DNA from: a virus
Taxonomy: Duplodnaviria; Heunggongvirae; Uroviricota; Caudoviricetes
Virus record (IMG/VR): IMGVR_UViG_2531839265_000009
Span: 1 to 10,116 of that record
DNA: 10,116 nucleotides
Strand: one strand, 5' to 3'
In this document: one piece after another, positions 1 to 10,116 of the stretch
How the letters are laid out: the number at the start of each line of letters is the position of its first letter
Numbering within the stretch: the first letter of the stretch is position 1
Program-made: the position numbers and the translations under genes
Notes under the pieces: generated by a model
Databases searched by the model: none
Seen by the model: only the letters and a program-made list of their open reading frames with translations
What the model was told of the DNA's origin: nothing

Positions 1-426
1 TTATAGATAGACCTCATCTATCAATCCCGTGCACACCTTCCCAAAAAAAAGTTTTCGAACCTGCGGCGATGTGAACAAGGGTAGGCGGGCGGTCCTGGGC
101 AGCCGGGGTTGCAAGGATTTGATCCGCCCCTCCCACCAATATTTATCGCCGTAACCGCTCCGGCTTCTTCCACTGGTACGTAATTTTTCTTTCTCCTGGT
201 ACATCTGCACGCGGCGACGGTACGACAACATCTCCAGAACTCTGGTGCGTATGTTGCGCATATCCACGCCGTTAAGCTCGATACCGTCACGGCGCATCAC
301 CTCAGCCACCACACGCGCGTAATTTCCGGCTATCACGCTGTCCGGCTGCGTGGCCTCCTGTTTGCCTGCTGCCTGGCTGGCTCCGGTAACGCGGCGAATC
401 ATTTTCAGCATTTCGGCTTCGGTCAT
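1..426 (-). CDS. hypothetical protein (141 aa from ATG 426; frame stays open to TTG at 456)
   Basis: Minus-strand ORF with TAA stop at 3..1. In-frame ATG at 426..424 lies 8 nt downstream of GGAGG (439..435). The N-terminal ~95 aa look like an ordinary helical protein; the C-terminal third is Arg/Pro-rich and overlaps a second open frame (21..290), so an undetected frameshift is possible. No family recognised. Confidence 0.45.
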   Translation of the reverse strand: MTEAEMLKMIRRVTGASQAAGKQEATQPDSVIAGNYARVVAEVMRRDGIELNGVDMRNIRTRVLEMLSYRRRVQMYQEKEKLRTSGRSRSGYGDKYWWEGRIKSLQPRLPRTARLPLFTSPQVRKLFFGKVCTGLIDEVYL

Positions 427-467
427 TGTCATGGCCTCCGTGGTGATAGGAAACAATGTCGTAATTG

Positions 468-547
468 TGGCGGGTCCTTCCTGGAAAATGAAACACCGGG
501 GGTAGCCATACGCGCAAAAACGCGCTGTTTATGAGATTTTTCGGAAG
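468..547. repeat. left arm of ~80-bp imperfect inverted repeat (partner at 1201..1280)
   Basis: Reverse complement of 468..547 aligns with 1201..1280 at roughly 80% identity. Conserved cores are AGCGCGTTTTTGCGCGTA and TACCCCCGGTGTTTCA, plus GGA(A)GGACCCG. Confidence 0.8.
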
Positions 548-708
548 GGTGGTTGTTGTTTAATTGTTTGTTATATCCATTTGATAACTAAGAGAAAACT
601 GAAAACAATACAACAACCTGAGGGCGTTTTTTTGATGTTATGGTTCCGAAAATGCCAATTAAATCAAATGGTTTAACAAAAATACGCGGTTGTTGTATTG
701 CATACTTA

Positions 709-1149
709 TTAGCTTTCCTGCTCTGTAACTACAGATTGTTGCAGATGCTCACGGCGAACGGCTACGGCATGACGCCACCCAGCCAGAAAGCCGGCCATTT
801 TATTTCGTGCCTTGCTCACGTCTTCCGGTGAGTAGCCGTAAATCTGCAGACCATTATCAAATCGCTGTTCTGTTTCTTCACTGAAAGACTCGTCGCGCTC
901 TGATGAAATCAACCTGGCAACCATAATCTTTTCCAGTGCGCTGGTTTCTCCATGGTGCTCAATAGCCTCAAGATGGCTTTTACCCATGCACCAGAATAAT
1001 GTGTGTCCGATGTGATAACCGCCGGACTTTCCGCGATCCGCATCAAGATACGGCATGCCCTGTTTGGTCCATGCGCGAATAGTGGTTCTGTTGACCTTGA
1101 AATGTTCTGCTATTTCCTGCTGACTCACAAAACAATCTTTATTATTCAT
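709..1149 (-). CDS. Nu1-like terminase small subunit-like protein (winged-HTH DNA-binding N-terminus); possible packaging-redirection factor
   Basis: 146-aa ORF. N-terminal segment QQEIAEHFKVNRTTIRAWTKQGMPYL resembles the lambda Nu1 N-terminus KKQLADIFGASIRTIQNWQEQGMPVL as I remember it. AAGGT RBS about 7 nt upstream of ATG 1149. Confidence 0.7.
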   Translation of the reverse strand: MNNKDCFVSQQEIAEHFKVNRTTIRAWTKQGMPYLDADRGKSGGYHIGHTLFWCMGKSHLEAIEHHGETSALEKIMVARLISSERDESFSEETEQRFDNGLQIYGYSPEDVSKARNKMAGFLAGWRHAVAVRREHLQQSVVTEQES

Positions 1150-1200
1150 AATGTTACCTTAATCGCATGATTAAATATTAATCAAGTGGTGGTGGTGTAC

Positions 1201-1280
1201 CCTTCCCGGAAAGTGTCATAAATAGCGCGTTTTTGCGCGTACACGTACCCCCGGTGTTTCAGATCCTGGAAAGGACCCGT
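1201..1280. repeat. right arm of ~80-bp imperfect inverted repeat (partner at 468..547)
   Basis: See partner arm. This arm lies between the terminator at 1282..1307 and the TerS-like start codon at 1149. Confidence 0.8.
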
Positions 1281-1281
1281 G

Positions 1282-1307
1282 AAAAAAAAGGCCGGATTGC
1301 TCCGGCC
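1282..1307 (-). terminator. rho-independent terminator at the end of the head-gene operon
   Basis: GGCCGGA (1290..1296) / TCCGGCC (1301..1307) stem with a 4-nt loop. On the minus strand it is followed by a run of 8 T (plus-strand A run 1282..1289). It sits directly after the stop of the ORF at 1312..1659. Confidence 0.75.
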
Positions 1308-1311
1308 TTTC

Positions 1312-1659
1312 TCAGATGTTTTTCAGTATGCGATCGATGGTATCCGTATCATAACCTTCACCTGCATAACCAGCATCTGCATAAATGGTCGCATCCTGTT
1401 TCATCATTGCGCTTAGTAGTTCGCTCGCCATATCTGCATCAAGACGCGAGACGCTAGCCATGCCACGCAATAACGGCTGATATTCAGGTGCGTCACTCAG
1501 AGCCATGATAGCGTTGACGCGATTTTTATCCTGCCTATCCAGAGCCTCAAGATTACTTCTGGCTTCATAAAGCGGCATCCCTTCATCTGCCATTGCCCTG
1601 GCTTCAACAGGAAATTTTCTGGCAAGCATTAACGACATAACGGCTTCATTCTTTGGCAT
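1312..1659 (-). CDS. hypothetical protein (115 aa), last gene of the head-gene operon
   Basis: Open frame on the minus strand. First ATG (1659..1657) follows the decoration-gene stop by 14 nt, and that intergenic spacer is a G8 homopolymer on the coding strand (C8 at 1662..1669). The upstream part of the 1312..1725 ORF overlaps the D-like gene in another frame and is not counted. No family recognised. Confidence 0.5.
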   Translation of the reverse strand: MPKNEAVMSLMLARKFPVEARAMADEGMPLYEARSNLEALDRQDKNRVNAIMALSDAPEYQPLLRGMASVSRLDADMASELLSAMMKQDATIYADAGYAGEGYDTDTIDRILKNI

Positions 1660-1673
1660 ATCCCCCCCCGTAA

Positions 1674-2009
1674 TTATCGCGCCAGTGGCTGAACTGATAT
1701 ACCTGACCCCGCAAAAGCTGCGCATTTCTTCACGTCTGTAGTGACGCTTTCAGGCCAGTTAACGGCGGCAATATTAAAAATCCCTGTCTTGTAACACTGT
1801 GCGGATTTTTGCTTTGCCGTGTCCAGGGGGTAGGAGGTCAGATAAATGGCCTTGCCTGATTCCTGACCGTCCCACGCCTTAAACTCGCCGTTCTCCGTCA
1901 TCATCAGCGGGGTAAACTCGGGAATAGCTCCGGCATCAGCGGCAAAGTGCACCAGCGTAGTGGAAACCTGCTGTGTACCGGAAAATAATTCAATATATGG
2001 AACGCCCAT
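1674..2009 (-). CDS. head decoration protein, lambda gpD-like
   Basis: 111-aa ORF. TPLMMTENGEFKAWDGQESGKAIYL...YKTGIFNIAAVNWPESVTTDVKKCAAFAGSGISV aligns along its whole length with lambda gpD as I remember it (TPLMLDTSSRKLVAWDG...[35 protein letters not shown]). GGGGGA RBS 5 nt upstream of the ATG. Confidence 0.8.
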   Translation of the reverse strand: MGVPYIELFSGTQQVSTTLVHFAADAGAIPEFTPLMMTENGEFKAWDGQESGKAIYLTSYPLDTAKQKSAQCYKTGIFNIAAVNWPESVTTDVKKCAAFAGSGISVQPLAR

Positions 2010-2021
2010 AAAAATCCCCCG

Positions 2022-3076
2022 TTAACCAATTTTCACGGTAACAAATTTGCGGATATCTGCCGGAACCGGTTGCGGTGCGCTGTGCGTCTGCACGTACTCA
2101 ATCGCCGGATCGCCTGGCTCAATCCAGTTTTTCGGGTAGTACATATTTCGTGTTGTGCCAGTTCTTACCGCGTCCTGATCCATAATTGCCCCATAGGCTA
2201 CCAGTCCTTTATTGCTGGTGTTCCCCAGAACAAGCAAATCAGGATCAAGAAAATGTTTTCTGTGCCGTCGCTGTCGGTGTATTTACCGGAATAAACAATA
2301 AGCGCCAGATCTCCCAGGTAGCCTTTAAAGCTCACCACTTCGCCCAGGTTTTTACACGCCAGCTCTGCCGCAGACTCTGACCCCCGGGACAAATCATAAA
2401 GTTCCCGGAATTTTTTAAAGCTGCGTAACAATCGCCAGGCATTCGCCCCCATAATCATGACGTTCGCGGGGCACTCAGCCTGTTCGGTATACAGTTCAAT
2501 ATCATCTGTCGGATCATGCGTCTCTTTATCCTGCTCAGACCATTTTTTCCCTGGCCCCTGCTGGATAATGCAGTTTGCTGGCATCCTCCAGTCGATTTCG
2601 TAGCGTTCTATGCCTTCGCCCTCAATGATATTTTTTCCGGTAGTGACTGCATTTACCGCCAGCCATTCAACACGGGCTTTGATGGCTTTTACCTGACGGC
2701 GAAGATTGCCGGTAATGAGGCGGAGGCGACGATAAGACGGGCTGTTGAGTGCTGCCGGATCTTCACCAGCAACACGCATAATGGTTTTTGATGGATCGAT
2801 TTCGTGTTTTGGCTTCATGTAGCCAGGCTGGATAATGCTTGTTTCGTACCCTTTATCACGCTGAACCTGACTACCCACCATCGGCGAACAAAATGCCGAC
2901 ATGGTTACTTCGTCATTTTCCAGATCATCTAACATAATCTTCTGTGTATCGAAGGTTGCGACGTTAGGGAAAAATAACGTGGTAAACAGCGGATTGAATT
3001 TAAAATCATCAACATCAGGACGATTCAGATAGGAAAAAAGCTGGTTTGTGTTCAGTGGTTGCGCCTTATCTGTCAT
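2022..3076 (-). pseudogene. major capsid protein, lambda gpE-like, interrupted by a 1-nt frameshift near 2250 (pseudogene or homopolymer sequencing error)
   Basis: ORF 2198..3076 matches the lambda gpE N-terminal and central regions (KFNPLFTTLFFP vs KFDPLFLRLFF; GYMKPKHEIDP vs GYVKPKHEVNP; THDPTDDIELY vs TYDPTDDIEAY). ORF 2022..2237 in another frame matches the gpE C-terminus (VLGNT..., YPKNWIEPGDPAIEY...). The frames switch at minus-strand gaaaacattttcttgat; one extra T would restore ...ENIFLDPDLLVLGNT.... GGGGGTGAG RBS upstream of ATG 3076. Confidence 0.8.
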
Positions 3077-3458
3077 TACTCACCCCCATGAGGCTGATTC
3101 ATACCAAGCGCAGCGCGTAAATGACTGCGTACCATCCAGCCGACTGACGGCTTCACCATGCACAACGGATCAAGGCCGATTTTTTTCCTGCCTCTGCGTT
3201 CTCCTCAAAGCGCGCATTAAGTGCGGCGATAATATCGGGGCTGATGTACACGGATACACCGCCCGGCTTCTGTGTTCCCATAAATGAGATTCCTCTTTGA
3301 CTAAAAACAAACATAACGAAAAGTCAGTCATGATTTTAATCATCGTTGCATTTTTTGCAATGATATTGACTGTTGTTGCAAATCATGAAATTATCATGCC
3401 GTGGTTTTACTCCTTGTACCACAGACTCATTCAGCATTAATCACGTTAGCGGCATGAA

Positions 3459-3492
3459 ATCCCCCGGAACCACATCCCGGGGGATTTTTTTT
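3459..3492 (+). terminator. plus-strand rho-independent terminator (no plus-strand CDS upstream; possible sRNA terminator)
   Basis: ATCCCCCGG (3459..3467) / CCGGGGGAT (3477..3485) 9-bp stem, followed by a T8 run on the plus strand. Confidence 0.6.
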
Positions 3493-3497
3493 GCGCA

Positions 3498-3524
3498 CAA
3501 AAAAGCCGGGAAAAATCCCGGCTT
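3498..3524 (-). terminator. minus-strand terminator downstream of ssb
   Basis: AAGCCGGGA (3503..3511) / TCCCGGCTT (3516..3524) 9-bp stem with a 4-nt loop. On the minus strand it is followed by TTTTGTG, a short U tract. It lies about 15 nt after the ssb stop. Confidence 0.5.
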
Positions 3525-3538
3525 CTGTCACTCGTTGC

Positions 3539-3961
3539 TTAAAACGGTATGTTATCCCCGTACGGATCATCATTACCCGCCTGTTGTTTTGCCCTGTTCA
3601 GCGCGTCAGTGGCCTGGCTCTGCTGGCCTTTTTTGCCGCCCGGGCGCGCCGTTCTGGCACTGATTACGCTGTCTGCGATAACCTGCCAGCCCTGCCGCGC
3701 TTCGCCGTTCTGGCCTGTCCACTGGCTTACCTGCATGTTACCCGCCACGCTCACCAGTTCGCCTTTGTGGTGTTTTGCCAGTGCGTCGGCCTGTCTGCCA
3801 AACGCCAGGACGGATAACCACATCGTCGCCGTTCCGTCATCTGCCTGGCTGCACGGCAGGGGAACCGCCATACTCGCCATCGCCATTTGTGTCCCTTTGC
3901 TGGTGGTCTTTAACTGCGGGTCAGTCGCCAACCGCCCGTAAGCCGCTATCTGTGCTGTCAT
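3539..3961 (-). CDS. ssb: single-stranded DNA-binding protein (SSB), plasmid/phage type
   Basis: 140-aa ORF. It has an OB-fold-like core (WLSVLAFGRQADALAKHHKGELVSVAGNMQVSQWTGQNG, compare E. coli SSB [40 protein letters not shown]), a Gly/Gln-rich linker and an acidic tail DDPYGDNIPF (compare DFDDDIPF). Its start overlaps the upstream gene stop as ATGA. Confidence 0.85.
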   Translation of the reverse strand: MTAQIAAYGRLATDPQLKTTSKGTQMAMASMAVPLPCSQADDGTATMWLSVLAFGRQADALAKHHKGELVSVAGNMQVSQWTGQNGEARQGWQVIADSVISARTARPGGKKGQQSQATDALNRAKQQAGNDDPYGDNIPF

Positions 3962-4209
3962 GCTGTCTGCTCTCCGGTTTTAACGTTGATGGTTGTCACC
4001 TGTTCCGCTTCGGCAATCTCCCGTTCTGTCAGCGTGGCAAAGTTTGCCGCCGCTGTGGTCATGAATGCGCTTATCAGTTCAGGATGCGCTTTCGCGTATC
4101 CTTCCCCGGCGTGGCGGTCTATCGTTCTGATTGCCACCTTTAAGGCGTGCTCTGTCATGTCTAATGCGCGATATTTTGGCGCTGTCTTATCTCTGCTTTT
4201 TCTGGTCAT
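3958..4209 (-). CDS. hypothetical protein (83 aa), translationally coupled to ssb
   Basis: Open frame whose stop overlaps the ssb start (ATGA). GAGGA lies immediately upstream of ATG 4209; an alternative internal start is M18. No family recognised. Confidence 0.5.
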   Translation of the reverse strand: MTRKSRDKTAPKYRALDMTEHALKVAIRTIDRHAGEGYAKAHPELISAFMTTAAANFATLTEREIAEAEQVTTINVKTGEQTA

Positions 4210-4218
4210 TCCTCACTG

Positions 4219-4412
4219 CTCCCCACTTTTACTACCCACTTTTTGAAATTACCCAACGTCTCCCCACTTCTTTTTTTGTGATTCTAACGTGATGTTTTTC
4301 AATGTATTTTTTATTCCCCACTTTTTGGGGTATATACAGGTGGGAAAGTGGGGAATCGCGTTTCAATTTTGTTAAATTCCCCACACTCCCCACTTTTACT
4401 ACCCACTTTTTA
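4219..4412. repeat. iteron-like repeat cluster with AT-rich spacer; candidate origin of replication
   Basis: 26-bp direct repeat CTCCCCACTTTTACTACCCACTTTTT at 4219..4244 and 4386..4411. Additional CCCCACTT(T) copies at 4262..4270 and 4316..4326. An inverted pair TTCCCCACTTT (4314..4324) / AAAGTGGGGAA (4345..4355). An AT-rich stretch at 4271..4315. The cluster lies immediately 3' of the helicase gene. Confidence 0.6.
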
Positions 4413-5783
4413 CAGTGGGCGCACGTCATCACCGTCAATAGCAATAACGCCATCACCTTCCAGCTTGTACAGCCAGCGCCGGAAGTGTTTCATCTCATAC
4501 CCCAGCTTTTTCATATCATCGCGCAACAACGGAATTGTGCATTTATCGCCGCGCTGTGTGCGTGAACGGATACAGCCCCATAGCGCGGCATGATTCTCCG
4601 TCTTGTTCCCGGCTTCCTCGATGCGCTCCAGTTCAACAGGTGGGCGCGGCTTATCCACAACCACCAGCGACGTGATTAACTCCTTGTCAGCGTCGGTAAA
4701 AAGCTCCACCACGCGTAAATCGTATGCAGCCTCTTTAAGTTCCTCCGCGTCCTTCATTTTGGTACAGGAGATAACCAGGGCTTCACTGTCTGCACCTTCC
4801 CGGCGAATACGGTATTCAGCGTCCAGAGATGCACGAAATGCACTGGAACCACGCGCCCCCTTTGTTTCATCCTTGCCGGAATGGTGAACCACCAGTACCG
4901 TGGCCCCTGTGCGTCGCTTCAGTTCGTCACATCCACGGATAAACGCCCCCATATCCCGCGCGTCATTTTCATCATTACCGCCAAAGCAACGCGCCAGCGT
5001 GTCCAGAATAATCATGCGTACCGGTTTACCCGTTTCCCGTTCAACCTGACGGGAAGCGATGACCATTTCATCAACATCAAGCGGGACCGCCGGAAAAATC
5101 GGGCGGTTTACCAGGTACAGATTTTTCACCCGTTCATCATTAACGATTTCCCATGCTTTGATACGACGAGGGACACCAATGCCACCTTCACCGACGACAT
5201 ACATCACCGAACCATGCGCCACCCTGCGGCCTCCCCAGTGGCGACCCGTGGCAACATGACACGCCCAGGAACACGCGAGGAATGATTTATAGGAACCGCT
5301 CGCGCCGTATGTGCTACACAATGAATTAGCCGGAATCACGCCCTTAACGACATAATCAAGCTGTGTGTCGTACCCTGCAGATCCAATACTCATTGGTAGC
5401 GTGGTTTTTCGCTGGCTGTATTGCTCGTCAGTAAGTATTTCCCCGCGCTCTGCCTGTTCGCGGATCCGTTGCAGGTAGTCGTGCCAGTTCTCCAGCTTCT
5501 GGCTGTGCATTCCCTCAGGGTAATAATTCGCATCCCGTACACCTGCCGCCGCCAGTTTTTGCCCGATGGCATTAATATTTGACGGCTTGATGTGGCCTGC
5601 CTTGTATAGCCGGACACAATAGCGACCATCATCGATGATTTTCAGGTCTGCCAGTTCGTCAAGCTGGCTGTCTCCCAGCCATACAGGCGGAACATTGTCG
5701 CCAGCAAGTCGCCCGTCCTGTTCCTGCCATTGTTTCGCGTGCGCCCAGGCATCACTACCCGCAAAAATAATGACTTCGGTCAT
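4410..5783 (-). CDS. replicative helicase, RecA-fold AAA_25 / RSF1010 RepA-like ATPase domain with an unassigned ~150-aa N-terminal domain
   Basis: 457-aa ORF. RMIILDTLARCF (Walker B-like), TVLVVHHSGKD and KGARGSSAF match the RepA/AAA_25 helicase pattern as I remember it (RLMVLDTLRRF, SIVFLHHASKG, ASRGSS). The P-loop region is GASGSYKS at 5283..5306. Confidence 0.75.
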   Translation of the reverse strand: MTEVIIFAGSDAWAHAKQWQEQDGRLAGDNVPPVWLGDSQLDELADLKIIDDGRYCVRLYKAGHIKPSNINAIGQKLAAAGVRDANYYPEGMHSQKLENWHDYLQRIREQAERGEILTDEQYSQRKTTLPMSIGSAGYDTQLDYVVKGVIPANSLCSTYGASGSYKSFLACSWACHVATGRHWGGRRVAHGSVMYVVGEGGIGVPRRIKAWEIVNDERVKNLYLVNRPIFPAVPLDVDEMVIASRQVERETGKPVRMIILDTLARCFGGNDENDARDMGAFIRGCDELKRRTGATVLVVHHSGKDETKGARGSSAFRASLDAEYRIRREGADSEALVISCTKMKDAEELKEAAYDLRVVELFTDADKELITSLVVVDKPRPPVELERIEEAGNKTENHAALWGCIRSRTQRGDKCTIPLLRDDMKKLGYEMKHFRRWLYKLEGDGVIAIDGDDVRPL

Positions 5784-5820
5784 TTTGTCGTGCGGCTGTT
5801 TTTTAAGTTCGGTGCCAGTT

Positions 5821-6120
5821 TCATTTTTTGCCCCTGAATGCGTTAATCATGTTTTTCATTTTCTGAATGTTCGCCCGTGCCCTGGCGTTACTGGTGGGCT
5901 GTTTGCGTGGTGTGGCCTGTACCAGTGAAAAATCGCGCCGGAACTGATAAACAGGCATCACGCAGTCATAGCTGTACCCATCACGGCGGTAAGTAACGCA
6001 TCGTCCCGCCACGCTTTTAATCGTTACCGTGCCGCCGTAGTTATCCCTGAAAATATCGCCGGGGCGGATTTCAGGCCGAGCGGGGCCGCTGGCAGTAAAG
6101 CCAGAATTTTTCTGTTTCAT
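5821..6120 (-). CDS. hypothetical small basic protein (99 aa) immediately upstream of the helicase gene
   Basis: Open frame with AGAGGA RBS 8 nt upstream of ATG 6120; lysine/arginine-rich C-terminus. No family recognised. Confidence 0.55.
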   Translation of the reverse strand: MKQKNSGFTASGPARPEIRPGDIFRDNYGGTVTIKSVAGRCVTYRRDGYSYDCVMPVYQFRRDFSLVQATPRKQPTSNARARANIQKMKNMINAFRGKK

Positions 6121-6190
6121 GGTTTTTATTCCTCTGCGCGGGTCTTGTTGTGTATTTCCATAACCGCGTTTAATTCATCAATAACCGGGG

Positions 6191-6334
6191 TTAACAGAGT
6201 GCTGAAAGCAGAAAATAAATCCCCCCCTGTTCGGCATGAACTTCGGTTAATTTAATTAATACCGCTTTCATTTCCAGTGCCCGATTTAATGCATTCTCAG
6301 AATGAATAAGAACATCGAAAGGGATTTCATTCAT
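6191..6334 (-). CDS. hypothetical small protein (47 aa)
   Basis: My own translation from ATG 6334..6332 gives MNEIPFDVLIHSENALNRALEMKAVLIKLTEVHAEQGGIYFLLSALC, stop TAA at 6193..6191. It is below the ORF-track length cutoff. Its start overlaps the stop of the upstream gene (ATGAATGA) and shares the start context GGTGAGCCATG with that gene. Confidence 0.4.
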   Translation of the reverse strand: MNEIPFDVLIHSENALNRALEMKAVLIKLTEVHAEQGGIYFLLSALC

Positions 6335-6791
6335 GGCTCACCACCTCCGGGAATTTTCTTCTGTAACGCGCCTCTGCAACATATTCCGCATAGTCCGACG
6401 CAATATTGAGAATATCCACACCCTCTGCCCTGTAGCCACTGGTACTGATAAGGAAAAATGCGGCTTTCATCATGTCGGCAACGCATAACAACGCATCGCC
6501 GGTGTGTTCTGGTGCGCCATCAAATTCCTGTTTCAGGGCATTAAAACGATCATCACGCATAACCCCCCCATTTTCACAATCAGCAATCAGGATGGCTTTA
6601 GCCTCATTCAGTGCCATATCAGCGGTAAGCTGTGCGTAGGCCAGCGAATGGGGGATTATTGCCCCTGTATACTCCGGCTCTCTGCTAATGTGTTTTTCCG
6701 CGGTTGCTGCCGTGCATGAAATATTAATCAGCGCGTGCATCAGCGTTCTGATAGCTTCGGCGGCTGCGTCCGGACGGGTGTTATTGCACAT
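6327..6791 (-). CDS. hypothetical protein (154 aa)
   Basis: Open frame with GGGGGTGAG RBS and start ATG 6791..6789. Overlaps the upstream gene by 11 nt and the downstream small ORF by 8 nt. No family recognised. Confidence 0.55.
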   Translation of the reverse strand: MCNNTRPDAAAEAIRTLMHALINISCTAATAEKHISREPEYTGAIIPHSLAYAQLTADMALNEAKAILIADCENGGVMRDDRFNALKQEFDGAPEHTGDALLCVADMMKAAFFLISTSGYRAEGVDILNIASDYAEYVAEARYRRKFPEVVSHE

Positions 6792-6987
6792 GGCTCACCC
6801 CCTGACGAATACGGGCGGCGAATACCATCACGCAGCCAGCCGGGGATTGCTGGCGTGCTTCCTGTTCGCTGGTGGCCTCAATGGTAATCACGCGCGGTTG
6901 TGCCGTACTCAGGGCGATAAAACGCCAGATATATTTATTCAGGTTGTGCGAGTCCCGCCCTTGCGGGTGTGTGGTATGATTTCTCAT
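6781..6987 (-). CDS. hypothetical small protein (68 aa)
   Basis: The 3' 68 codons of the long 6781..7425 frame, starting at ATG 6987..6985 with GAGG 5 nt upstream. The rest of that frame runs antisense through the RHH gene and is rejected. Stop TAA at 6783..6781 overlaps the next gene's start. Confidence 0.4.
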   Translation of the reverse strand: MRNHTTHPQGRDSHNLNKYIWRFIALSTAQPRVITIEATSEQEARQQSPAGCVMVFAARIRQGVSHVQ

Positions 6988-7068
6988 AGCTGCCTCGATA
7001 CTCTTTCTATCGTTGGTGGTTAGACGCCCTGCATGTGTGCCACCACTGCGGGGCGTTGCGTTTTTTGA

Positions 7069-7128
7069 TGTACACGTGTTAAGGTGTACACCTAACGAAC
7101 CAAAACATAACGCTATAGGTGTACACAT
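7069..7128. promoter_or_regulatory. three GTGTACAC-type palindromic operator-like sites upstream of, and overlapping the start of, the RHH gene
   Basis: TGTACAC at 7069..7075 overlapping the ACACGTGT palindrome at 7072..7079. Perfect 12-bp palindrome AGGTGTACACCT at 7082..7093. AGGTGTACACAT at 7117..7128, which overlaps the probable RBS (AGGTG) and the A of ATG 7127. Confidence 0.6.
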
Positions 7129-7321
7129 GTCAACAGTTATTAAGCGCGATAAAAAACAAAAAGGCACAGGAAAGGCCCCACCATTCCATATGCGTATAGT
7201 CCCTGAATTGAAGGAGCAGTTTGATAACGAAGCCAGTAACGATGGAGTAAGTCTTGCCAACTGGCTTAAAGAGTTAGGGCGCAAAGAACTGCTACGGCGC
7301 GGAATTGAGCCAAAGGGATAA
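7127..7321 (+). CDS. Arc/Mnt-family ribbon-helix-helix DNA-binding protein (64 aa)
   Basis: FHMRIVPELKEQFDNEASNDGVSLANWLKELGRKEL fits the RHH beta-strand plus two-helix pattern (compare Mnt FNFRMPMEVREKLKFRAEANGRSMNSELLQIV). ATG 7127 sits 5 nt after AGGTG. The longer 7013..7321 frame upstream has no RBS and runs through the operator palindromes. Confidence 0.6.
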   Translation: MSTVIKRDKKQKGTGKAPPFHMRIVPELKEQFDNEASNDGVSLANWLKELGRKELLRRGIEPKG

Positions 7322-7330
7322 CTATCACTA

Positions 7331-7861
7331 ATGTCGCAACCAGAGGAGTTGCGACTCCAAAGATTACATAGGAGATTAATGATTATGGGATTCGTCATTT
7401 TCATTGCGATCGTAATTTTATCCATTTACGTTCTTACCAAATTATTTATTTCAGAAAATTCACACGACAAAATTAGAGCCGAGGCATCCAGAAGAATTGC
7501 ACAAGAAGAGGCCGAACGGGCTAAGTTGTATGAAGAGAGAAAGGAATCATCTGATAATCCTGTTAATAAACAAAAACGAATAACAACACACGAAGATCAT
7601 TTTTATATGGATATTCATGGCGGTCACAAATATATATGTGTTGATGCTAAGTTAGTTTTTGAATATGCAAATTTAAAACACAACTATTTTCTTCACGCAT
7701 CTCACTATTTCCCTGAGTTAGAGTATGTTTATGGAAAAAACGAACATGGGAAAATAGTTAGAGTAGATTTGTACGATAAAAAAATTCAAGCTATTAACCC
7801 CGATACTGGCGAAAAAATACCAGGTGTGAGACGTTACCTACGACAGCACAAGATAAAATAG
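7331..7861 (+). CDS. single-pass membrane protein with ~130-aa His/Tyr-rich C-terminal domain, unknown function (AT-rich cargo gene)
   Basis: Open frame with one hydrophobic helix (MIMGFVIFIAIVILSIYVLTKLF) preceded by a basic segment (RLQRLHRRL), then a charged linker and a C-terminal domain. Strong AGGAG (7370..7374) favours ATG 7379 or 7385 as the real start; 7331 is the longest frame. Markedly AT-richer than its surroundings, by eye. Confidence 0.6.
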   Translation: MSQPEELRLQRLHRRLMIMGFVIFIAIVILSIYVLTKLFISENSHDKIRAEASRRIAQEEAERAKLYEERKESSDNPVNKQKRITTHEDHFYMDIHGGHKYICVDAKLVFEYANLKHNYFLHASHYFPELEYVYGKNEHGKIVRVDLYDKKIQAINPDTGEKIPGVRRYLRQHKIK

Positions 7862-7963
7862 CCCACCGGAATTTTTTTCCGGTTACGCTTTGCCCACCAG
7901 CCGCAAATGTGGCATTGTTGGCAATGCTCATGCGTTGGGGATAACGTGTAGCTTGTGTCGAAT

Positions 7964-7991
7964 GGCCACCGTAGCAGGTGGCCTTTGTTTT
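7964..7991 (+). terminator. rho-independent terminator for the plus-strand cassette
   Basis: GGCCACC (7964..7970) / GGTGGCC (7977..7983) 7-bp stem with a 6-nt loop, followed by TTTGTTTT. Confidence 0.65.
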
Positions 7992-8142
7992 GCCTGTTAT
8001 CCGGCAATTGTGGCGCTTCGTCACACGGTTGATATAATTCCCCTGCACTGATCCATTTTTTTCGCAGCAGGTTAATTGTTCACAAGGGCGCTCCGGCAAC
8101 GGGGTGCTTTTTGTTATGTTCATTGCGTTACACCTAACACCA

Positions 8143-8349
8143 TTACGCAGCCGTTCCGCGCGCTTCTTCCTCGCGTTCTTTCAGCCAGGCCAGCACCTCA
8201 TCTTCATACCAGCCAACACGGCGCAGACCGATTTTGAAGCCTTTCGGGAATTTTCCGGCGCTGATCATGTCCTGTAGCGAACTGTCTGCCTTGATGCGCA
8301 GAATATTTTTTACTTCCTGACGGGTAAGAATTTTTCTGATTACTTCCAT
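8143..8349 (-). CDS. alpA: AlpA-family phage transcriptional regulator (MerR-like HTH; excisionase/activator-like)
   Basis: 68-aa ORF. ILTRQEVKNILRIKADSSLQDMISAGKFPKGFKIGLRRVGWYEDEVLAWL matches the AlpA pattern (L..V....G.S..T.Y.....G.FP.....G.R.VGW...EV..WL). GAGGT RBS 9 nt upstream of ATG 8349. Confidence 0.85.
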   Translation of the reverse strand: MEVIRKILTRQEVKNILRIKADSSLQDMISAGKFPKGFKIGLRRVGWYEDEVLAWLKEREEEARGTAA

Positions 8350-8414
8350 CGTGTTTTACCTCGTTAATCCGGCGTATTCCGGTGATAAATACGGTAAAAC
8401 AGGGCAGGGCGGGA

Positions 8415-8454
8415 AAAACAGTACTCACCGTTTTAAAACGGTACTCACTGTTTT
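8415..8454. promoter_or_regulatory. two tandem 20-bp imperfectly palindromic repeats upstream of alpA (candidate operator)
   Basis: AAAACAGTACTCACCGTTTT at 8415..8434 and AAAACGGTACTCACTGTTTT at 8435..8454, differing at 2 positions. Each has inverted ends AAAAC.G / C.GTTTT around TACTCAC. Confidence 0.55.
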
Positions 8455-8482
8455 TATCTCATTGATTACGCTTTCTTTTTGC

Positions 8483-8513
8483 AAAAAAAATAGCGACCGC
8501 AAGGGGCCGCTAT
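8483..8513 (-). terminator. rho-independent terminator after the int / small-ORF transcription unit
   Basis: ATAGCGACC (8490..8498) / GGCCGCTAT (8505..8513) stem with one mismatch. On the minus strand it is followed by a T run (plus-strand A run 8483..8489). Confidence 0.6.
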
Positions 8514-8518
8514 TGTGA

Positions 8519-8761
8519 TTACCGCTTCCACTTCTTAGGTCGTCCACCACATTTAAGGCTGGTGGGTCTCAGCACCTTGTCGATGCTTTCAGCCAGATTT
8601 TTCGATGCGCCACGCGAGCGTAAAAAACTGACTACCTCGTGTTTTGTGGGGGCTGTTGATTTGTCTTCCGGATCGTATGTTGACCAGAATTCATGATTTG
8701 CCATTAACGCCAGTTGCAGTCCTTCACCGCAGACATTGGATGATTTTTCGTGCCAGACCAT
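8519..8761 (-). CDS. hypothetical protein (80 aa) between int and alpA
   Basis: Open frame only. Weak RBS. Basic C-terminus (GRPKKWKR). No family recognised; the exact start is uncertain. Confidence 0.4.
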   Translation of the reverse strand: MVWHEKSSNVCGEGLQLALMANHEFWSTYDPEDKSTAPTKHEVVSFLRSRGASKNLAESIDKVLRPTSLKCGGRPKKWKR

Positions 8762-8874
8762 TTCAATAAATCTCGATTTCTCATGAGTCGGGTTTTTCCT
8801 TGTCTGTTGAGGAGATAGAGGATTATACGATGGTTTGGCATGGTTTGCACTGGTTATACTGTTTTTTTGTACAG

Positions 8875-10116
8875 TTACACGGCACGGATACCCCTTTTAC
8901 CACTGGCTATGGTCACTCCGGTAGCTGCGGCCTCTACAAATTCCCCCCACCAGCGCATAAGCACCACGCGCTTTTCCAGGTAGTTACTTCGGTTATATGC
9001 TCGCCTTACCTCGTTCGTGTCCACGTGTGCGAGTGCGGCCTCGATTACGTCCGGCTCGAATCCTTCCTCGTTCGCTGCTGTACTGAATATGGCGCGTAAT
9101 CCGTGAGACACCAGCACACCAGCGTATCCCATCCGGCGCAATGCAGCGTTAGCGGTCTGGCTGCTCATTGGCAGCATTGGATTTTTAAGGCTGGGAAAAA
9201 CATGTTCCCTGTGTGCGCTGATTGGCTTCATTGTTTCCAGTACAGCCATCGCCTGACCGCAAAGAGGGATCACATGGTCACGGCGCATCTTCATGCGTCC
9301 GGCTGGAATCGTCCATGTTTCGGCATCGAGATCTATTTCTTCCCAGCGTGCGGCGGCTGCTTCGGCTGGGCGTGCTACGGTCAGCAGTTGCCACTCAATC
9401 AGCAATCTGGTTTGCCGTTCTATGCTGGCGACCGATAAATCGTGCATTAGCTGCGGTAGCTGTTCCGGTCGGATGGTTGGCATATGCTTTTTAGTGGGAG
9501 AAGGGAATGCCTTGCGGACGTTCGCTGCGGTGTTGATGTCAATCAGCCCACTGTTGGCAGCAAAATCCATCACTTCATTGATGCGTTGTAAAACGCGTTT
9601 CAGAGTTTCCAGGTTGCCACGCGCTTTAATGGGGGTGAGTATCTCGACAAAGCGGCGAGCGGTGAGGGTATCTATTGGCGTTTTTCCGATGTACGGGAAT
9701 ACGTATTTTTCCATGGATCGCCAGATATCCTTAATCGTGTTGTAAGCCAGATTCTGGCCTTTTTTCATCTCGTACCAGTCCGAGGCAACTTTTTCGAACG
9801 TGTTGCCCTTTTTCCTGCTCTCTGCTTCACGTTTCCGGCGTTCGTAGTCCTGTGGGTCAGTTCCCTTTGCTATGAGTGACCTGTATTCATTCCGTCGCTC
9901 TCTGGCATCAGACAGGGAAACATCATTTAGCGATCCAAGGCTGATAATAGTCCGTTTTTTATCTGCCGGGCGGTAGTACGTAAAACGCCAGATTTTTGAT
10001 CCGGAGGGCTTCACCAGAAGAAATAATCCTCCGCCATCCTGCAGGGTATATTCCTTTTCCCCTGGTCGTGCGTTTTTGATCTCCGTAATAGTTAGTGGGG
10101 GGGTTTTTCGTGCCAT
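8875..10116 (-). CDS. int: tyrosine site-specific integrase, P4-family (prophage CP4-like)
   Basis: 413-aa ORF. N-terminus YTLQDGGGLFLLVKPSGSKIWRFTYY is the typical P4-type integrase arm domain. C-terminal catalytic region contains the HGLR box (VSHGLRAIFSTAA) and a downstream Tyr (RRAYNRSNYLEKR). The ATG is the last three bases of the window, so its RBS and the attachment site lie outside. Confidence 0.95.
   Translation of the reverse strand: MARKTPPLTITEIKNARPGEKEYTLQDGGGLFLLVKPSGSKIWRFTYYRPADKKRTIISLGSLNDVSLSDARERRNEYRSLIAKGTDPQDYERRKREAESRKKGNTFEKVASDWYEMKKGQNLAYNTIKDIWRSMEKYVFPYIGKTPIDTLTARRFVEILTPIKARGNLETLKRVLQRINEVMDFAANSGLIDINTAANVRKAFPSPTKKHMPTIRPEQLPQLMHDLSVASIERQTRLLIEWQLLTVARPAEAAAARWEEIDLDAETWTIPAGRMKMRRDHVIPLCGQAMAVLETMKPISAHREHVFPSLKNPMLPMSSQTANAALRRMGYAGVLVSHGLRAIFSTAANEEGFEPDVIEAALAHVDTNEVRRAYNRSNYLEKRVVLMRWWGEFVEAAATGVTIASGKRGIRAV

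Follow-up and report, generated by a model that had tools for sequence, protein, structure and literature searches.

The stretch of viral DNA analysed here (10,116 nt, positions 1 to 10,116 of IMG/VR record IMGVR_UViG_2531839265_000009; hereafter the window) contains two arms of DNA that resemble each other in inverted orientation and bracket a single small gene, which raises the question of what such a pair represents. A first-pass annotation, made from the letters alone, had suggested packaging or TerS-binding sites, a helper-activated bidirectional regulatory element, or the ends of an inserted or invertible cassette. Based on comparison with known packaging sites, we consider it very probable that the arms belong to two lambda-type cohesive-end (cos) packaging sites in a phage-inducible chromosomal island (PICI), each arm being the cosQ-cosN core of one site, and that the two are placed head to head around rpp.

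An inverted repeat around a single gene

A repeat search of the window recovered an inverted pair at 471-549 and 1201-1279 (79 nt, 80% complementary, spacing 651 nt), whereas the next longest inverted pair is only 27 nt. The arms are identical at 63 of 79 positions without gaps, gapped alignment adds ~2-3 nt per end, and they score 49 in local alignment, far above chance, given that 200 dinucleotide-preserving shuffles gave 9.8 +/- 1.3 and never more than 16. The flanks at 461-470 and 1280-1290 are unrelated to each other. The first-pass description of ~80-bp inverted arms of ~80% identity at 468-547 and 1201-1280 is thus borne out to within 3 nt, as is its claim that they flank a Nu1-like gene alone, since 709-1149 (-) is the single sizeable open reading frame (ORF) between them.

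The island and its rpp gene

The genes and the terminator that frame the repeat are as follows.

1-432 (-): orfX, a conserved gene downstream, which starts ~40 nt outside the cos2 cosQ and is a flanking landmark, not part of cos
709-1149 (-): rpp (redirecting phage packaging), RppA type, 146 aa; matches PDB 6HLK RppC at E 7e-34 over residues 1-135
1283-1311 (-): intrinsic terminator hairpin with U8 that ends the upstream capsid-like operon and abuts the cos1 cosQ; fold -21.5 kcal/mol, z -3.3
1674-2009 (-): gpD-like decoration protein (Pfam)
2198-3076 (-): lambda gpE-like capsid protein (Pfam)
3539-3961 (-): SSB (Pfam)
4410-5783 (-): AAA_25 primase-type protein (Pfam)
8143-8349 (-): AlpA (Pfam)
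8875-10116 (-): tyrosine integrase (Pfam)

Judged by this gene content, the window belongs among the Gram-negative PICIs, in the family of the E. coli island EcCICFT073: it has the integrase, AlpA and primase/replicase of the PICI layout, lacks terminase and tail genes, and falls within the usual size of about 10-12 kb. The gene between the arms, previously read as TerS- or Nu1-like, does have the winged-helix likeness, but its product is an Rpp homologue and not a true TerS. Rpp proteins, which combine a TerS-like winged-helix domain with a dimerisation region, serve PICIs by capturing the small terminase subunit of a helper. In addition to the RppC match, it is 83% identical to RppA of EcCICFT073 and retains the proposed DNA-contact residues R21, T22, R25 and K29. 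The terminator at 1283-1311 is also present in EcCICFT073, and orfX, which has no Pfam match, is co-oriented with rpp in every related island.

Several further features of the island were observed. Frameshifts interrupt the gpE-like gene (2022-3076, -) near 2246-2252 and orfX (1-432, -) near 181-187; neither gene is broken in EcCICFT073 or in the IMG/VR island L035, and the frameshifts in the window may be sequencing errors or decay. EcCICFT073 has been described as being without capsid morphogenesis genes (PMC6092414), whereas gpE-like and gpD-like genes, plus an ORF of unassigned function, are found upstream of cos1 in this island family (window 1312-3076 (-); L006 9169-10997). Two ORFs without a Pfam match, at 7331-7861 (+), 176 aa, and 6327-6791 (-), 154 aa, may be accessory genes, the former being opposite in strand to the rest of the island.

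The arms as probable cos cores

The proposed packaging sites, referred to as cos1 and cos2 after their counterparts in EcCICFT073, comprise the following parts.

471-549 (+): cos2 core (left arm), with cosQ GCGGGTCCTTCC, cosN region GAAACACCGGGGGT-AGCCAT-ACGCGCAAAAACGCGC and TGTTTATGA box, in the position and orientation of EcCICFT073 cos2
548-700 (+): cos2 cosB, phage type, with three R-like repeats at 548-573 (+), 603-620 (inverted) and 685-700 (+)
1150-1200 (-): cos1 cosB, PICI-specific part, GGTACACCACCACCACTTGATTAATATTTAATCATGCGATTAAGGTAACATT, reaching the rpp start codon
1201-1279 (-): cos1 core (right arm), with cosQ CACGGGTCCTTTCC, cosN region GAAACACCGGGGGT-ACGTGT-ACGCGCAAAAACGCGC and TATTTATGA box, colinear with EcCICFT073 cos1

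Read toward rpp, each arm is colinear with lambda cos, which is too divergent for blastn and was aligned to the arms by hand. Both have the cosQ block ACGGGTCCTTTCC, ~43 nt that include the cosN region, and the CGCTATTTATGA..TTTCCGG box; the distance from cosQ to the TATTTATGA box is 43 vs 44 nt in the alignment, and the order and spacing of lambda are kept. A BLAST comparison of the arms with a phage collection gave a prophage fragment, SerU-LTIIb, as the sole match. The sequence of lambda cosN, GGGCGGCGACCT, occurs in neither core, and the predicted 12-nt cores (GGTACGTGTACG in the right arm, GGTAGCCATACG in the left) are unlike that of lambda and differ from each other at 4 central positions. 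Because of these differences the nick sites are predictions from positional homology with lambda: the 12-nt cohesive end of cos1 would lie at ~1238-1249 (+/-1 nt) and that of cos2 at ~501-512.

The divergence of these cores from lambda appears to reflect membership of another cos family. A scan of IMG/VR gave 31 stretches with the GAAACACCGGGGGT-N6-ACGCGCAAAAACGCGC family, often on contigs 34-68 kb long. Whenever the core is followed by a gene in these viral contigs, that gene is terS, at a distance of 228-269 nt, which identifies the family by position as a genuine phage cos family. The N6 centre is hypervariable among its phages (L035-L065 of IMG/VR: CATAGC, CGGTGG, CGTAGG, CTGGGG, CATGGG and others) while the flanks are invariant, and a non-lambda core therefore marks a sub-family rather than a lack of function.

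The pattern of mismatches between the arms is consistent with this assignment. They fall in stretches that also vary among phage cos sites, lying between cosQ and cosN, in the centre of cosN and over the final few bases ahead of cosB, and the repeat is therefore best regarded as two copies of a constrained functional core. The likeness of the arms would follow from the need of each to preserve what the large subunit acts on (cosQ, cosN flanks and TATTTATGA box), and the repeat would stop at its inner ends because two different cosB regions start there. Homology indicates that the feature is functional.

The same arrangement is found in EcCICFT073 (NC_004431, 1377749-1389210). Two copies of the lambda cosN 12-mer are present there: one precedes rppA by 90 nt on the (+) strand, the other follows it by ~200 nt on the (-) strand, in agreement with the published Figure S1 cos1 and cos2 sequences. 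Window positions 1150-1279 align with the published EcCICFT073 cos1, a fragment which runs on into the start of rpp. Of the packaging readings in the first-pass annotation, paired cos sites therefore hold, given the colinearity with lambda, phage cos and EcCICFT073 cos1/cos2, but the arms themselves are not the TerS-binding sites, since a cosB lies just inside each arm and the two differ.

Some cosN variants were seen among the related loci. In L013 (2370-2433 and 3137-3200), the rare variant GGGCGTCGACCT is common to both cos sites, and in L026 and L028 the variant GGGCGACGACCT is found in cos2 only; these patterns hint at occasional inter-arm conversion, or at matching to a helper. Separately, the SerU-LTIIb record (L001, KU052038) has a 'NU1-like protein' coding sequence annotated over the aligned cos site at 6461-6679, with the real terS starting from 6727, and this is probably a mis-annotation.

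Two different cosB regions

The cosB of cos1 is specific to these islands. In the window (CACCACCACCACTTGATTAATATTTAATCATGCGATTAAGGTAACATT-ATG), it is ~90% identical to its EcCICFT073 counterpart and contains no R-element triad, and it is conserved in 27/27 Rpp loci, even in the RppC-like L034, where the identity of Rpp drops to 44%. In EcCICFT073, the RppA-TerS complex recognises the cosB of cos1 and not that of cos2 (PMC6739421).

The region inside cos2 is of a different kind. Exact copies of GGTTGTTGT occur at 551 (+), 610 (-) and 688 (+), one per R-like repeat, with no other exact copy in the window, and the geometry of the repeats resembles R3/R2/R1 of lambda. The window cos2 aligns end to end, over 229 nt at ~80%, with phage and prophage cos sites upstream of SE11-type terS, a TerS class that is encoded by five viral contigs, all of which (5/5) contain the GGTTGTTGT motif three times. 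In this alignment the R-like blocks are 96%, 89% and 80% conserved, vs 75% and 60% for the spacers. In E. coli SE11, a lambdoid prophage has a cos2-like segment immediately before its small terminase gene, and about half of 474 matching E. coli genomes match the cos2 segment only.

The phage relationship extends to the other islands. In phage PhiR12_1, the cos site between Rz and Nu1 shows 93% identity over 179 nt to the cos2 of EcCICFT073, a match that takes in the three ATGTCCGGTT-type repeats of the latter. Across islands, the cos2 cosB is of at least four types, in contrast to the constant cosB of cos1. The four main types pair with one TerS class each in viral contigs (5/5, 4/4, 5/5 and 4/4), and all four island types are also found in phage contigs. 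Based on these alignments, cos2 is identified as a complete phage cos with a phage-type cosB. This identification, like the match of island cos2 cosB types to phage TerS classes, goes beyond the published accounts consulted. The strict consensus WATCAANNNNTTR for IHF, whose lambda site lies between R3 and R2, was the only form searched and has no match anywhere in the window, including either cosB, which counts slightly against a cosB that is lambda-like in every respect. Both PICI cosB regions have been described as unrelated to phage cosB (PMC6092414, PMC6739421); by our comparisons, this statement is true for lambda and phi80, but not for other lambdoid classes. In the literature searched, no relevant later study of cos2 or of the PhiR12 phages turned up.

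Conservation and exchange among related islands

To place the pair among its relatives, we compared 26 islands: 23 of the 24 IMG/VR loci encoding Rpp relatives (those reaching both sides of the gene), the window, EcCICFT073 and the TerS-carrying island of E. coli HNSQ2209. In all 26, exactly one core lies on the rpp strand just upstream of the gene and one on the opposite strand just downstream. The set is partly redundant, with 20 distinct arm pairs, and all related loci are enterobacterial. The gpD-like gene, the next ORF, rpp and orfX are always co-oriented, so no inversion was seen; the rpp segment is inverted in 0/26, and no empty version was found. At least 80% of the cos2-rpp-cos1 segment is carried by 44 complete E. 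coli genomes. A scan of species-representative genomes by protein pattern returned a single doubtful locus, in a Dokdonella MAG (L010; 36% identical over 80 residues). One IMG genome (UViG 2585427729) contributed three separate Rpp-encoding island contigs, L021, L031 and L033.

The IMG/VR island L035 indicates how the segment changes. It is 98.1% identical to window 1233-4179 and 92% to window 143-544, yet encodes a 194-aa 21-like TerS in place of Rpp between the arms, with 21-type repeats in the cosB of cos1 and SerU/lambda-type repeats in that of cos2. Homology with the window breaks inside both arms just past cosN, after ACGCGCAA. By this alignment, islands that are otherwise 92-98% identical have exchanged everything between the two cosN sites as a single unit, a finding beyond the published accounts consulted, and this explains why the inner arm halves co-vary within an island. 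The simplest cause of such a swap would be ordinary homologous recombination in the shared cos cores. The same backbone and two cosN cores, with a full 21-like TerS instead of Rpp, were observed in L035 (9290-10300), L008 (3005-4030) and L060; in these islands both cosB regions are of phage type and differ from each other.

These comparisons bear on the two explanations in which the arms are not packaging sites. One is that they are regulatory DNA, acting as paired operators or as a bidirectional helper-activated promoter for rpp and the downstream gene, which we regard as very improbable. Each arm is indeed intergenic and upstream of a (-) gene, and the right arm follows a terminator, so that rpp needs its own promoter within 1150-1280. 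However, a sigma-70-like scan of 380-1400 gave 2 sites vs 2.0 expected, none of them in an arm. The promoter/terminator scan also missed the clear terminator at 1283-1311, which RNA folding confirmed. An Rfam search matched no RNA family. The bidirectional element of the first-pass annotation thus found no backing in promoter enrichment or RNA families. Moreover, the arms are inverted although the genes are co-oriented, their homologues in phages are the cos cores that sit between the lysis genes and terS, and the mismatches between them fall in stretches that are unconstrained in phage cos sites too.

We give similarly little credence to the view that the arms, as terminal inverted repeats, mark the ends of an rpp cassette that moves by transposition or flips by site-specific inversion. 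It draws on L035, in which a 98%-identical backbone has a different gene between the same arms and homology breaks in both of them, but these breakpoints coincide with the edge of the shared cos core, where ordinary homologous exchange between cos sites would place them. The segment is never inverted or absent among the 26 islands, its flanking genes are always co-oriented, and neither an invertase nor a transposase lies near the arms, the only nearby recombinase being the island integrase ~8 kb away. What stands of the inserted or invertible cassette suggested at first is the exchange of the segment as a unit, apparently by homologous recombination and not by transposition or inversion. A transposable cassette with terminal inverted repeats was also considered as a candidate and rejected, there being no transposase, no island without the segment and no relation between the flanks at 461-470 and 1280-1290.

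A proposed role for cos2

With paired cos sites as the preferred reading, the layout of cos1 (cosQ-cosN-cosB-rpp) parallels that of phage cos and Nu1, and by analogy with EcCICFT073 its cosB would be read by a heterodimer of Rpp and helper TerS. Packaging in lambda proceeds from cosN toward cosB and Nu1. The helper large subunit would accordingly nick the cosN of cos1, and packaging would move left across rpp and follow the concatemer round until it reached another cos1. By contrast with this Rpp-dependent route, cos2 could be read directly by the unmodified TerS of the SE11-prophage-type phage class, with packaging running rightwards. In lambda, initiation requires cosN and cosB, and termination requires cosQ and cosN (PMC6739421). 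Given the orientation dependence of lambda cosQ and cosN, the inverted arrangement would mean that a run terminates only at the same kind of site: each would pass the other site in a non-productive orientation and end at its own next copy, leaving matched cohesive ends. Of these elements, sequence identity, homology, the arrangement and its conservation come from the present comparison, while the function of both sites and the dependence of cos1 on Rpp come from published experiments with EcCICFT073; that the DNA of the window island is cut, where exactly it is nicked, and that cognate phages make use of cos2 are what we infer.

Why some PICIs have two cos sites is a question that has been asked and left unanswered (PMC6739421). 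Our hypothesis is that cos2 exists for helpers with a TerS able to read its cosB unaided, a proposal on which our confidence is close to evenly divided. With confidence falling a little short of even, the pair could form a dual-specificity switch, with cos1 used for any helper whose TerS can be captured by Rpp and cos2, as an inserted copy of the full cos of another TerS class, used for those phages without Rpp. The inter-cosN cassette (right flank of cosN, cosB of cos1, rpp or terS, cosB of cos2) would be swapped to retarget helpers.

The main rival to a helper role is that cos2 is a recombination relic, or a decoy that ties up unmodified phage terminase (interference), with only cos1 mattering for spread, which we consider rather unlikely, although the decoy variant is conceivable. 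This explanation fits experiments with EcCICFT073, in which transfer by lambda and phi80 depends on cos1 and not cos2: deletion of cos1 lowers transfer by both phages, whereas deletion of cos2 raises lambda-mediated transfer (PMC6092414). RppA, in turn, stimulates cos1 only, via its cosB (PMC6739421), and with these two helpers cos2 is dispensable and even slightly harmful (PMC6092414, PMC6739421). However, cos1 and cos2 each allow transduction when cloned in a plasmid, and it takes a double deletion to abolish transfer (PMC6092414). A relic would also sit poorly with the presence of cos2 in 26/26 islands, with R-like blocks that are better conserved than spacers, and with a cosB that has been exchanged among at least four phage types, always as a complete triad or dyad. 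Furthermore, none of the helpers tested in the literature (lambda and phi80) carries the cognate cosB. A site that is costly with such non-cognate helpers yet always kept suggests a compensating benefit; we therefore argue from its cost with lambda and its universal retention that cos2 is of benefit elsewhere.

A helper role for cos2 would matter beyond this locus. PICIs carry virulence and defence genes among enterobacteria, and which phages carry them depends on cos recognition. Interchangeable phage-type cosB modules in cos2 would offer a testable explanation for the second cos, and could make helper range predictable from sequence.

Comparison with known systems

The window is similar to EcCICFT073 in gene order (int, alpA, primase, ssb, capsid-like genes, rpp, orfX) and in having one core directly upstream of rpp and an inverted core downstream. 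However, its cosN is GAAACACCGGGGGT-N6-ACGCGCAAAAACGCGC, unlike that of EcCICFT073, which is lambda's. The two cohesive ends of EcCICFT073 are identical, whereas those predicted in the window differ (ACGTGT vs AGCCAT), and the cos2 cosB is of the ATGTCCGGTT type in EcCICFT073 and of the GGTTGTTGT type in the window. The two-cos design of EcCICFT073 thus extends to a second cosN family, and is universal in the sampled relatives.

Lambda shares with the window the order and spacing of cosQ, cosN and TATTTATGA box, the +,-,+ orientation of the R repeats with similar spacing in cos2, and the position of cos1 upstream of a Nu1-like winged-helix gene. Unlike lambda, in which cosB is R3-I1-R2-R1, the window has different cohesive-end and R sequences, no strict IHF site, and two oppositely oriented cos sites that are not followed by terminase genes.

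As what appears to be a near-complete copy of a phage cos, cosB included, cos2 resembles the helper-cos copies of SaPIbov5 and SaPIbov4 (PMC5052747) and of P4 with the P2 cos. Two putative cos sites have been reported in SaPIbov4 (PMC5052747), and the helper-embedded PICI 11capE has 258 bp in common with the cos of its helper (PMC10111431). In the window, unlike these satellites, the copied cos coexists with an Rpp-dependent cos that it faces across rpp. Based on sequence comparison, the pair is the known cos1/cos2 arrangement in a new relative whose cosN family and cos2 module differ from those described; the phage-type cos2 and the swapping of modules at cosN are modestly new and testable.
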